This document shows, in pieces, positions 262 through 5,123 of a stretch of 7,147 nt of DNA. Both the position numbers and the translations under genes were made by a program. Positions within the stretch are counted from its first letter, which is position 1, and the number at the start of each line of letters is the position of its first letter. The DNA comes from a virus: UHGV virus genome UHGV-1395224; one strand, given 5' to 3'. Under the pieces are notes generated by a model. It searched no databases, was not told the DNA's origin, and worked only from the letters and a program-made list of their open reading frames with translations.

Positions 262-293
262 GCCGGAAAATTTATTTTTTTCCGGCCTTTTTT
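262..293 (+). terminator. Rho-independent terminator, plus-strand orientation
   Basis: GCCGGAAAA (262-270) pairs with TTTTCCGGC (278-286) around a 7-nt loop, followed by C and TTTTTT (288-293). On the minus strand the same hairpin is followed by ATGCTAC with no U-tract, so it is unidirectional. Confidence 0.6.
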
Positions 294-304
294 ATTGGCA
301 ATAT

Positions 305-727
305 TTAAAACGGTATATTATCGCCGTACGGATCATCATTCCCCGACTGTTGTTTTGCCCTGTTCAGTGCGTCAGTAGCCTGGCCCTGTTGACCTTTTTT
401 GCCGCCCGGTCGCACCGTTCGCGCACTGATTACGCTGTCTGCGATAACCTGCCAGCCCTGCCGCGTTTCACCGTTCTGTCCAGTCCACTGGCTCACCTGC
501 ATGTTACCCGCCACGCTCAGGAGTTCGCCTTTGTGATGCTTTGCCAGCGTGTCGGCTTGTCTGCCAAACGCCAGGACAGATAACCACATCGTCGCCTGAC
601 CGTCATCCGACTGACTGCAGGGCAGTGATACCGCCATACGCGCCAGCGTCATGGGGATGCCCTTGCTGGTCTGTTTTGTCTGCGGGTCGTCCACCAACCT
701 CCCGTAAACTGATATTTGCGCCGTCAT
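305..727 (-). CDS. Single-stranded DNA-binding protein (SSB family), 140 aa
   Basis: OB-fold-like core whose segment WLSVLAFGRQADTLAKHHKGELLSVAGNMQVSQWTGQNGETRQGWQVIADSV aligns by eye with the E. coli SSB segment [52 protein letters not shown]. C-terminal tail ends DDPYGDNIPF (canonical SSB ends DDDIPF). Start ATG overlaps the upstream stop as ATGA at 724-727. Confidence 0.75.
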   Translation of the reverse strand: MTAQISVYGRLVDDPQTKQTSKGIPMTLARMAVSLPCSQSDDGQATMWLSVLAFGRQADTLAKHHKGELLSVAGNMQVSQWTGQNGETRQGWQVIADSVISARTVRPGGKKGQQGQATDALNRAKQQSGNDDPYGDNIPF

Positions 728-981
728 GCTGCCTGCTCTCCGGACTTAATATTGATGGTTGTCACTTCCTCCGCTTCGGCAATCTCCCGTTCGGTCAGCG
801 TGGCAAAGTTTGCAGCCGCCGTTGTCATGAATGCGCTTATCAGTTCGGGATGTGCTTTCGCGTATCCTTCCCCGGCGTTGCGATCTATTGCCTTAATCGC
901 CACCCTTAGCCAGTGTTCAGCCATATCAAGGGCACGGTAATGTGGCTTTATATGTTTGTTCAGTTTTCCTGATGTGTGCAT
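724..981 (-). CDS. Hypothetical protein, 85 aa, translationally coupled to the SSB-like gene
   Basis: Complete ORF immediately downstream of the iteron region. GAGGGGG lies about 11 nt upstream of the ATG at 981. Stop overlaps the SSB start (ATGA). No family recognised. Confidence 0.5.
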   Translation of the reverse strand: MHTSGKLNKHIKPHYRALDMAEHWLRVAIKAIDRNAGEGYAKAHPELISAFMTTAAANFATLTEREIAEAEEVTTINIKSGEQAA

Positions 982-1026
982 TTTTATTTTTACCCCCTCG
1001 TTTAAAAAGTTTTGAAATGTGGTGCA

Positions 1027-1260
1027 CCTCCTCTACCTCTCTACCTAATCATCTTTCAGGTCAGTAATGGCGCGGCTTTCAGATGGGTAGAGGGCTTTCG
1101 GGGCCCTCTACCCATCCTCTACCCGCCCCTCACAAATGACCTTAATCATGGTGGAGGAGGTAGAGGGCTTTTATTTGCCTTCTACCTGGCCCTCTACCTG
1201 CTTATCATATTGAATAATATATATTTATTTTCTTTAGGTAGAGGAGGTAGAGGGCTTTTG
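1027..1260. repeat. Iteron array, putative replication origin: about 10 copies of GGTAGAG(G) in both orientations plus an AT-rich spacer
   Basis: CTCTACC at 1031-1037, 1039-1045, 1106-1112, 1117-1123, 1192-1198 and degenerate TTCTACC at 1180-1186. GGTAGAG at 1086-1092, 1159-1165, 1237-1243, 1246-1252. A 19-bp repeat GAGGAGGTAGAGGGCTTTT occurs at 1154-1172 and 1241-1259. Inverted pair GGGTAGAGGGC (1085-1095) and GCCCTCTACCC (1103-1113). AT-rich stretch 1201-1236. Lies directly 3' of the primase-helicase stop. Confidence 0.7.
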
Positions 1261-1267
1261 TCTAAAA

Positions 1268-3928: not shown

Positions 3929-4145
3929 GACTCACTCCCTGGCGGATTTTTGCAGCGAATACAGCAACACAACCGGACGGGCAACGGCTACGCGCTTCGC
4001 GTTCCGTCCAGGCGGTTACGTGGATGATTTGAGATTCTCCGGCACTCAGTGCCAGAAAACGCCACACAAAGGCCGTTTGTGTGTGTACAAGGTGTGGTAT
4101 ATGATTTACAGCAACCATAACGGCTCCTAGTTTACGTTGTTGGTT

Positions 4146-4190
4146 AGACGCCCCGTTACTGCTCCTACAGTGCGGGGCGTTGTTTTTTGT
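4146..4190 (+). terminator. Rho-independent terminator, plus-strand orientation, with no convincing plus-strand gene upstream
   Basis: ACGCCCCG (4148-4155) pairs with CGGGGCGT (4173-4180); an inner ACTG/CAGT stem (4158-4161 / 4168-4171) sits inside the loop; followed by TGTTTTTTGT (4181-4190). On the minus strand the hairpin is followed by CTAACCAAC, so it is unidirectional. Confidence 0.65.
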
Positions 4191-4251
4191 GTAATGGTAA
4201 GTACAATGGTAATTACCATGTAACTATAGTAATTAAGGGTAATTACCATGT
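4191..4251. promoter_or_regulatory. Operator/promoter region for the RHH gene: two perfect 10-bp palindromes GGTAATTACC 30 bp apart, plus a central palindrome ACTATAGT
   Basis: GGTAATTACC at 4208-4217 and 4238-4247; the 14-bp direct repeat GGTAATTACCATGT at 4208-4221 and 4238-4251. AATGGTAA at 4193-4200 and 4205-4212. ACTATAGT at 4223-4230 holds a -10-like TATAGT. The second palindrome abuts the RHH start codon. Confidence 0.6.
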
Positions 4252-4421
4252 CAACACCATTAGAGAAACGATCGCCACCATACCAAATGCGACTACCAGA
4301 AGAATTTAGAGCGCAACTTGAGGAGGCAGCCAAGGCAGACGGCGACACCTCATTAGCTACTTGGATTAAACGAATACTCCGCAAAGAATTACAACAGCGC
4401 GGTATCGAGCCCAAAGGCTGA
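4248..4421 (+). CDS. Arc/Mnt-like ribbon-helix-helix DNA-binding protein, 57 aa (below the ORF-track size cutoff)
   Basis: Hand translation gives MSTPLEKRSPPYQMRLPEEFRAQLEEAAKADGDTSLATWIKRILRKELQQRGIEPKG, stop TGA at 4419-4421. Beta-strand YQMRLP followed by two helices is the RHH pattern. AAGGG lies 8 nt upstream of the ATG. Palindromic operators sit immediately upstream. Confidence 0.7.
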   Translation: MSTPLEKRSPPYQMRLPEEFRAQLEEAAKADGDTSLATWIKRILRKELQQRGIEPKG

Positions 4422-4514
4422 CAGCCAACCAGCAAGCCAGCACACTGATCACATTGCCCACCAGCCGCAAATGTGGCATTGTTGGTGATGCTTTTGTTTT
4501 CCCTTGTTCCCACT

Positions 4515-4546
4515 GGCGACCCTTTTGCGGTCGCCTTTGTTTTGTC
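4515..4546 (+). terminator. Rho-independent terminator, plus-strand orientation, downstream of the RHH gene
   Basis: GGCGACC (4515-4521) pairs with GGTCGCC (4529-4535) around a 7-nt loop, followed by TTTGTTTTGT. Confidence 0.6.
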
Positions 4547-5123
4547 ACTGAATGCGGTTACCAAAGTAAAACTCAGGCTGATATACACGTATCAGCCTTT
4601 TTTCTTCTTCCTCCAGCTCACGCTTTTTGCGCTTACATGCCTGTAGCTCCCTCCCCTTCTCGCTGGCACTTATTTGATATTGCTCTTTACGGCGGGAAAA
4701 ATCCTGTAATGCACCCCATGGGATACCATAAGCCCCCGTTTTTCTGATACCCGGTATCACATTTCTGAATACCCAGTTACTGAAACGATGAGCAAATGTG
4801 CCAGGCGTCGTTGCTTTGCGGCTGCGGGCTATTAGTTTGTAGAAACCTGACTCAGAGATAATTCTCATATTCTGATTTCCTCCTGGGGTGTAAGTTAAAT
4901 TTACTCCCTTTTCATCATCATCAAGCATCTGCAACGCCGTACGCGAATTGGTTAGTTCCAGCGCAGCACAAACATCTTTTGCAACAAACCACGGATCGCC
5001 GTTCAGATACACCACACGAACGTTCACACTATCAAAGCGCAGAACGACGAGATCACGAATATCGCAGAATTTTTTCACTGGACGAGCGTACCCCTTGCCC
5101 GTCACGGCAATATTTTTATTCAT
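4545..5123 (-). CDS. Bro-N domain protein (antirepressor-like), 192 aa
   Basis: N-terminal segment LRFDSVNVRVVYLNGDPWFVAKDVCAALELTNSRTALQMLDDDEKG...GGNQNMRIISESGFYKLIARS matches the Bro-N signature as I recall it. C-terminal region is charged and low-complexity. The start lies only about 18 nt beyond the alpA terminator. Confidence 0.75.
   Translation of the reverse strand: MNKNIAVTGKGYARPVKKFCDIRDLVVLRFDSVNVRVVYLNGDPWFVAKDVCAALELTNSRTALQMLDDDEKGVNLTYTPGGNQNMRIISESGFYKLIARSRKATTPGTFAHRFSNWVFRNVIPGIRKTGAYGIPWGALQDFSRRKEQYQISASEKGRELQACKRKKRELEEEEKRLIRVYQPEFYFGNRIQ
4576..4603 (+). terminator. Second tandem plus-strand terminator, lying inside the 3' codons of the minus-strand Bro-N ORF
   Basis: GGCTGATA (4576-4583) pairs with TATCAGCC (4590-4597) around a 6-nt loop, followed by TTTTTT (4598-4603). 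Confidence 0.6.

Follow-up and report, generated by a model that had tools for sequence, protein, structure and literature searches.

The FinP RNA of F-like plasmids is ~75 to 80 nt long and folds into two stem-loops, the second of which is an intrinsic terminator; it lies opposite the 5' untranslated region (5' UTR) and ribosome-binding site (RBS) of traJ, and its specificity is set by the loops, whose sequences vary from allele to allele. In the immunity regions of temperate phages, P22 Sar and lambda OOP are short cis-antisense RNAs with a promoter in or next to the target and an intrinsic terminator that stands against the direction of the surrounding genes. Sar covers the RBS of ant beside the switch formed by Arc and Mnt, which are ribbon-helix-helix (RHH) proteins. 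According to the C4-icd logic of phage P1, an RNA prevents an icd-type leader open reading frame (ORF) from being translated, or blocks its target sites, and the downstream operon is thereby turned off; P1 C4 and P4 CI both derive by processing from the strand that also carries their target, and the sites at which they act are separated. For Gram-negative phage-inducible chromosomal islands (PICIs), the published control model centers on activation by AlpA and, in the case of embedded islands, on helper read-through, and both silencing and switch-on are poorly understood. Here, we analyze a stretch of 7,147 bases (UHGV virus genome UHGV-1395224; "the window"), which comprises most of a phage satellite with genes mostly on the minus strand. 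Four hairpins in it, T1 to T4, have the form of intrinsic terminators on the opposite, plus strand, and one of them, T2, is described below as the probable 3' end of a candidate cis-antisense RNA that covers the RBS of the island's replication operon.

Results

T2 is maintained as an RNA structure on the plus strand

T2 is located in the divergent region between the start of the first gene of the replication operon (4118, minus strand) and the start of a gene for an Arc-like RHH regulator (4248, plus strand); the coordinates of all features are collected in Table 1. The first gene of the operon, here referred to as the icd-like gene, is named "host cell division inhibitor Icd-like protein" by PGAP in relatives, and its product had no match in Pfam. 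With the primase as anchor, one-genome-per-species contigs yielded 4 related loci only, and a phage collection gave only 3 matches, which were short and unannotated. In total, ~200 related loci were gathered from viral contigs and Escherichia coli genomes. In these loci, T2 forms the junction of a conserved operon leader with at least 11 unrelated cassettes.

Thirty-five distinct variants of the T2 hairpin were recovered (3 of them spurious). In 32, the plus-strand fold was more stable than the minus-strand fold, with mean stabilities over the variants of -19.5 kcal/mol (plus) versus -14.8 kcal/mol (minus), and the plus folds contained 66 G·U pairs versus 10 in the minus folds. When 30 distinct sequences of one leader family (family B, see below) were aligned and folded with RNAalifold, two stem-loops of 13 bp each were obtained, SL1 and SL2 (the latter corresponding to T2), with 98.6% of the cells paired and 8 compensatory pairs. 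None of 500 column shuffles equaled this alignment, and slid controls reached 34 to 54% pairing. Across 45 distinct sequences (from 100 covariance-model matches), the T2 helix was 99.1% paired, and 9 of its 13 pairs were compensatory. The non-Watson-Crick cells of T2 and SL1 in the same 45 sequences comprised 164 G·U and 0 A·C. Since a G·U pair on the plus strand corresponds to an A·C mismatch on the minus strand, only substitutions that preserve pairing in the plus-strand RNA have been accepted. The opposite bias would be expected from transcription-associated deamination of the coding strand of the operon. The tails of T2 likewise remained T-rich over 38 distinct tail sequences despite the at least 11 unrelated cassettes that follow. 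These results showed that T2 is selected as RNA on the plus strand.

A predicted cis-antisense RNA covers the start of the replication operon

Together with the upstream SL1 and the U-tract, T2 makes up a segment of 79 nt (4111 to 4189) which folds with a z score of -4.1 and carries an anti-Shine-Dalgarno motif, CUCCU, in the loop of SL1. The segment is exactly complementary to the leader, Shine-Dalgarno (SD) sequence, and start codon of the replication-operon mRNA, thus covering both the SD sequence and the start codon of the icd-like gene, and it lies entirely within the predicted leader of that mRNA (start at ~4219, minus strand). Its structure is conserved as in cis-antisense small RNAs (sRNAs), including compensatory changes in a homologue from Serratia.

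A plus-strand promoter is predicted inside the icd-like gene, and we consider it probable. In 42 of 42 distinct upstream sequences, a TATNNT hexamer (TATGAT, TATAAT, TATAGT, or TATTAT) was present at a fixed distance. The second leader family (family B, as in ATCC 25922) heads a divergent icd-like gene, and 31 of its 35 upstream sequences have an extended -10 element (TGnTATGAT or TGnTATAAT), reading TGGTATGAT or TGGTATAAT on the plus strand and situated 4 nt ahead of the complement of the start codon. The fixed -10 was also kept in three sequences in which divergence of the icd-like protein is complete beyond codon 5.

In family B, the 7-nt loop of SL1 is hypervariable, with at least 12 versions (e.g., L089, 2490 to 2505) between invariant CGATA/TATCG arms and near-identical flanks. 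The type of this loop assorts independently of the type of T2, the loop of which is also variable. Such variable loops are the pattern that would be expected where loops set pairing specificity. A reading of the duplicated GCTCCTA (4129 to 4135 and 4160 to 4166) as a C4-like double target was rejected on account of the different T2 loops of relatives.

Several observations weigh against the overall reading favored here, in which the four hairpins belong to three unrelated units and T2 ends a cis-antisense RNA. The promoter in the window is weak (8 of 12, under the threshold of the scanner) and has no TGn extension. Because the -10 element lies in coding sequence (codons 3 to 5), its conservation is confounded with that of the protein N terminus (MRN[H/Y]T, VNHI). 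SL1 is not the same in both leader families, and compensatory change is seen at just two of its pairs. In about a quarter of the T2 variants, the tail is interrupted (CGUCGUUUC), and termination may be leaky. The corresponding locus of O157 Sakai lies in Sp7 (T2 at 1597470-1597427, minus strand), and the Hfq-crosslinking supplement for this strain contained nothing at the T2 locus. Finally, loci with T1 show no informative substitutions, so that variation does not tell on which strand T1 acts. Taking these points into account, we assign a probability of roughly 60% to this overall reading, with T2 as the 3' terminator stem-loop of a predicted cis-antisense RNA of ~75 nt over the RBS of the replication operon, T3 and T4 as terminators of the regulator transcript, and T1 as an inverted SSB terminator.

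Distribution of the RNA motif

A covariance model (R1) built from family B matched the window at full length on the plus strand (4115 to 4188; 50.4 bits, E of about 1e-11). It also matched an island of Serratia aquatilis (56.5 bits), where the motif is again antisense to the operon and overlaps the operon's first start codon. In this copy, compensatory changes are present in both helices (CGUUA/UAACG for CGAUA/UAUCG; AAGCUCGG/CCGAGCUU). Of 5426 complete E. coli genomes, about 1100 contained a match to the T2 region of the window (4086 to 4192), with related islands occupying up to 6 places per genome. In four relatives (L025, L028, L053, and L100), a second model match was found ~740 nt from the first; these loci have two tandem icd-like genes, each with a copy of the motif. 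A weaker match (23.6 bits, E of 3e-4) was found in O157 Sakai prophage Sp6 (L088, 17260 to 17334, minus strand), overlapping the start codon of the antirepressor gene ECs_1557, with TATACT immediately upstream. Ordinary lambdoid prophages may have a related antisense arrangement.

An Rfam scan of the window at E values up to 10 returned no C4, IsrK, or Esr41, but only chance microRNA-like matches on the origin iterons; scans of the relatives L001, L085, and L089 at E values up to 1 gave no C4, IsrK, Esr41, or other family. In the literature on Icd-like proteins, CP-933C, EcOnc, and PICIs with antisense RNA, no description of such an RNA was found. The candidate RNA, whose expression is predicted only, is apparently undescribed and would belong among the cis-antisense regulators of immunity regions.

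Plus-strand terminators of the island

A previous sequence-only reading of this DNA had listed four terminators working in the plus direction only. All four hairpins were found, with slightly corrected coordinates, and the gene map bore out its further statement that all genes except the RHH gene are on the minus strand. When examined for a G+C-rich stem-loop followed by a U-rich tract, T1 to T4 pass on the plus strand and none passes on the minus strand, where AUGCUACA (T1), CUAACCAA (T2), AGUGGGAA (T3), and a merely weak GAGUUUUACU (T4) come after the hairpins. The full T2 stem was overlooked by a simple scanner because of its long loop. For the minus strand, the terminator after alpA had been reported as the only one; it stands as the sole strong terminator, but a weak hairpin within the icd-like gene (4083->4063) had gone unlisted. 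The claim that the Bro-N gene and the long operon have no obvious minus-strand terminators holds for the lineage of the window, and sister islands have one after SSB.

The plus strand, which is antisense to nearly all genes, is T-rich (30 T-runs of ≥5 versus 11 A-runs), and this T-richness by itself predicts some plus bias in shuffled sequence. As a chance check, 100 dinucleotide-preserving shuffles were scanned with the same site rule, which resulted in 5.3 ± 2.1 sites on the plus strand and 2.3 ± 1.3 on the minus strand, compared to 14 and 3 observed sites, respectively. The plus strand had 4 strong sites (≥7 pairs and ≥4 G-C), versus 0.58 ± 0.67 in the shuffles; the alpA hairpin as read on the plus strand is among these 4, and T2 is not (loop too long). 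The observed plus count was reached in 0 of 100 shuffles, both for all sites and for strong sites. The excess of plus-strand terminators is genuine, and composition accounts for part of it only.

The sequence-only reading had explained this asymmetry as insulation of the island and confinement of the RHH transcript. Confinement is upheld for T3 and T4, since they close the plus-strand regulator unit that converges on Bro-N and every relative keeps a plus-strand terminator there, also when the hairpin has another sequence; T2, however, does not fit, as it belongs to a conserved structured plus-strand RNA. T3 closes a block (4444 to 4546) that is near-invariant in many relatives and follows differing plus-strand genes: the RHH gene in the window and a gene of the YlcI/YnfO family plus an ORF of 59 amino acids (aa) in L001. 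An independent sRNA in this block was rejected, the 5' part being better read as the 3' remnant of the second plus-strand ORF of relatives. At the position of T3, at least 4 different hairpins occur in relatives, all in plus orientation; in distant relatives (e.g., GGGCCACC...GGTGGCC and GGCGGCTCC...GGGGCCGC), T-tracts follow each of them on the plus strand. The signal of RNA-strand selection at T3 consists of one variant from E. albertii with a single G·U pair, workable on the plus strand only, and T1 offers no informative variation. T4 lies 30 nt beyond T3, where it falls within the 3'-terminal codons of Bro-N, a convergent gene, and is retained with minor changes in relatives. From their position and conservation, T3 and T4 are ordinary terminators of the plus-strand regulator unit, with T4 as backup: T3, then T4, would stop the RHH transcript before it runs antisense into Bro-N, alpA, and int.

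T1 (GCCGGAAAA-N7-TTTTCCGGC plus a T6 tract) is situated between the stop codon of SSB (305) and the start of the capsid gene (87) and is conserved, as either of two sequence variants, in about 25 related loci. In sister islands, the SSB stop codon is followed by AAAAAA-GCCGGATTGCTCCGGC, in which the GCCGG/CCGGC stem of T1 recurs with a minus-strand U-tract, forming a normal SSB terminator. Judged by this comparison, T1 is effectively a flipped SSB terminator in the lineage of the window, and flipping of the unit leaves no minus-strand stop between the replication operon and the capsid genes. The replication operon would then read into the capsid genes, and plus-strand transcripts would be stopped at T1. 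In the full island, no plus-strand gene was found for >10 kb upstream of T1; a role as a barrier to stray antisense transcripts is possible. A T1-linked sRNA of ~70 nt from a plus-strand promoter-like site (189 to 216) is not claimed here, as the -35 was not conserved and the fold was modest (z = -2.6). Placement of Esr41 at the T1-equivalent position was considered and dropped as unconfirmed, with no Rfam match in L085.

We favor, with some reservation, three unrelated units (T2; T3/T4; and T1) over a single insulation set. The opposing explanation is that of coordinated plus-strand barriers against antisense and read-in transcription across the island and the switch, with no discrete RNA. 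It would agree with the lack of a plus-strand gene upstream of T1 or T2, with a terminator excess that exceeds composition, and with a fifth plus-only terminator, which has an 11-bp stem and lies outside the window at the left boundary of a full-length relative (L001, 2569 to 2596, ~110 nt inside the island). However, the island is co-directional with the genes of a lambdoid late operon, so that helper late transcription enters on the minus strand, where plus-strand terminators are unable to block it. Moreover, the plus-strand gene already explains T3 and T4, and a hairpin with a T-tract would suffice as a barrier; SL1, a fixed -10, and a two-hairpin unit retained as far as Serratia would not be needed. 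We consider this explanation unlikely.

The switch region and its exchanged cassettes

Beyond T2, the window contains a switch region with three copies of a palindrome and an operon promoter with a good match (Table 1). The minus-strand -10 of this promoter overlaps a plus-strand TATAGT (4225 to 4230), and a single -10 region between the operators may serve both divergent promoters. The at least 11 unrelated cassettes found downstream of T2 in relatives have their own operator repeats and regulator (RHH, YlcI/YnfO, and others), and they also carry a TTGAC(A/G) -35 for the operon promoter. As compared across these loci, the immunity region after T2 is a module that is exchanged freely, with a conserved flank on either side.

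The proximity of T2 to the regulator gene invites another reading, in which the plus-strand promoter inside the icd-like gene, as sole or second promoter, serves the regulator mRNA and a leaky T2 in the 5' leader sets the repressor level, the short RNA being a by-product. T2 precedes the RHH start by 58 nt and no strong plus-strand promoter was detected in this gap, many T2 variants have weak, interrupted U-tracts, and the order of RNA motif and regulator gene is kept in Serratia. On the other hand, cassettes of the YlcI type, again including Serratia, carry a conserved, promoter-like T-rich-GTGTATACT just upstream of the regulator, and the T2 tail of the window (UGUUUUUUG) is among the strongest. 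We judge this reading to be rather improbable; it is compatible with an antisense effect on the icd-like gene. Leakage through T2, if it occurs, would feed the regulator gene. That the hairpins act on the minus strand, as 5' UTR or 3' stabilizers of mRNA or as DNA palindromes, with the plus-strand T-tracts as a by-product of composition, is very improbable: the T-rich plus strand, the location of T2 within the operon 5' UTR, and those of T1 and T3 directly after minus-strand stop codons would suit it, but the G·U versus A·C counts in T2 and SL1, a minus version weaker by about 4.7 kcal/mol, and the failure of composition-preserving shuffles to give the excess speak against it.

Layout of the island

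At its right end, the window contains a fragment of a lambda-type portal gene (6829 to 7147), and in L001 and L002 both halves of this gene are annotated pseudogenes that flank the island (L001, 1675 to 2457 and 13286 to 14119). The island is thus inserted in a prophage late gene, co-directional with a lambdoid late operon, and is made up of int, alpA, a Bro zone, a replication zone with primase and SSB, and a late zone. By position and gene content, it is a helper-embedded PICI configuration as described in PMC10111431. In one relative (L086), the gene encoding the large subunit of the terminase is interrupted instead of the portal gene.

Iterons (CCTCTACC/GGTAGAGG) are densely packed between the primase gene and the next gene, around an A+T-rich center, and this field is likely the replication origin. 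Between int and the portal junction (6697 to 6752), three direct copies of (A/C)ATTGCAATACACA were found, which are probably arm-type sites for integrase or AlpA (compare the "doubled DNA motif" of PMC10111431). The frame of the capsid gene contains no stop over the 68 codons that precede its annotated start (88 to 292, minus strand), with an in-frame ATG at ~261, and spans the T1 region; this extension is probably due to chance.

Table 1. Positions of genes, terminators, and regulatory elements in the window
Feature	Position	Strand	Remarks
Candidate cis-antisense RNA, about 75-79 nt	4111-4189	plus	SL1 4113-4145; SL2 (T2) 4147-4181; U-tract 4182-4189
Candidate RNA promoter	TTGTGT 4077-4082; TATGAT 4100-4105	plus	17-nt spacer; within icd-like codons 5-14; read from sequence
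T1	stem 262-270/278-286; unit 262-293	plus	9 bp; free energy (dG) -13.5 kcal/mol; tail CTTTTTTATT
T2	stem 4147-4181; tail to 4189	plus	13 bp, one bulge; dG -23.4 kcal/mol; tail TGTTTTTTG
T3	stem 4515-4535; unit 4515-4546	plus	7 bp, 6 G-C; dG about -15; tail TTTGTTTTGT
T4	stem 4575-4598; unit 4575-4608	plus	10 bp; dG -14; tail TTTTTTCTTCT
alpA terminator	5167->5149	minus	between alpA and Bro-N; sole strong minus-strand terminator
Weak terminator-like hairpin in icd-like coding sequence	4083->4063	minus	CACACAAACGGCCTTTGTGTG, then GCGTTTTCTG; 35-55 nt inside ORF
Switch region	4193-4254		palindrome AATGGTAATTACCATGT three times: 4193-4209, 4205-4221, 4235-4251
Operon promoter	TTGACA 4254-4249; TACTAT 4231-4226	minus	17-nt spacer; good match
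RHH regulator gene (Arc-like)	4248-4421	plus	57 aa; sole plus-strand gene; Pfam Arc, E 0.0057, below curated cut-off
int	6680-5439	minus	P4-type integrase
alpA	5437-5180	minus
Bro-N gene	5123-4545	minus	Pfam Bro-N; convergent with plus-strand regulator unit
icd-like gene	4118-3921	minus	first of replication operon; predicted RNA target; SD AGGAG 4134-4130; start codon 4118 (4116-4118)
Three small ORFs	between icd-like gene and DUF4222 in listed order	minus
DUF4222	3315-3016	minus	Pfam
Primase	3019-1268	minus	D5_N/DUF5906 (Pfam)
Iteron field	about 1026-1259	both orientations
Small ORF, hypothetical gene	between iteron field and SSB in listed order	minus
SSB	727-305	minus	Pfam
Capsid gene	start 87, leftwards	minus

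Discussion

In the mechanism that we propose, an antisense RNA would be transcribed from the -10 element that overlaps the first icd-like codons and would fold as SL1 and SL2 (T2). Pairing of this RNA with the mRNA would block translation of the icd-like ORF, and polarity would then lower the expression of the primase operon, perhaps via the weak hairpin 4083->4063, which a translating ribosome would normally melt. This hairpin, with its tail GCGUUUUCUG, is found at the same site in L001, L085, and L086, and in family B a G+C-rich hairpin, CCCGC-AAGG-GCGGG, is present at the equivalent place in the icd-like gene; it may serve as a translation-coupled attenuator. The RHH protein and its operators would constitute a first layer of repression and the antisense RNA a second, and T2 would have a local confining effect by keeping antisense transcription out of the operator/regulator cassette.

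As a tentative extension, the motif might represent a new family of cis-antisense RNAs, with two stem-loops and rapidly diverging loops, at the leader/cassette junction of E. coli PICIs and helper-embedded PICIs, reaching to Serratia, that together with the cassette forms a two-layer immunity or incompatibility determinant and whose block of the icd-like leader ORF triggers premature termination within it. An antisense RNA over the RBS of the replication operon would add a layer of repression to the AlpA-centered model. Because the RNA is located beside swappable repressor cassettes, it could explain how several related islands coexist without cross-talk. The predicted RNA occurs in standard strains, namely ATCC 25922 (family B; NZ_CP009072, about 109,58x-109,66x, plus strand of the record) and O157 Sakai (Sp7, minus strand, about 1597511->1597428); A0 34/86 is a further carrier. 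Strand-asymmetric terminators are unremarkable alone; here, they point to a widespread candidate antisense RNA in Gram-negative satellites. For annotation, this suggests that "wrong-strand" terminators in one-directional operons can flag unannotated antisense genes and are not necessarily noise.

The island itself resembles the helper-embedded PICIs of PMC10111431 in its co-directional insertion into a lambda-type portal gene and in the succession of int, alpA, Bro, a replication zone, and a late zone (capsid, decoration, and small terminase). In the main text of that study, the word "antisense" occurs 0 times and "terminator" twice, neither time referring to plus-strand terminators of the island. 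The candidate RNA shares with FinP the two stem-loops with the terminator as the second, the position antisense to an RBS, and, in family B, a hypervariable SL1 loop. It differs in that there is no sequence kinship, that it is found in a phage satellite and not in a plasmid, that no gene for a FinO-like chaperone was seen, and that its expression is a prediction. With Sar, the locus has in common an Arc-like RHH gene and palindromic operators adjoining the RNA; unlike Sar and OOP, the candidate matches no Rfam family and would target an icd-like ORF that heads a replication operon.

The regulatory logic proposed here is the same as that of C4 and CI. However, the candidate is encoded on the opposite strand, and the Rfam models of C4 and IsrK match neither the window nor the three relatives scanned, whereas C4/IsrK matches have been reported for some related islands (PMC10111431). 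The proposed shut-off within the icd-like gene would also parallel the translation-dependent termination in P4 eta/kil that is summarized in the same study. If this interpretation is correct, Gram-negative PICIs would gain an RNA-based repression analogous to that by P1 C4 and P4 CI, with the RNA coming from the strand opposite its target.

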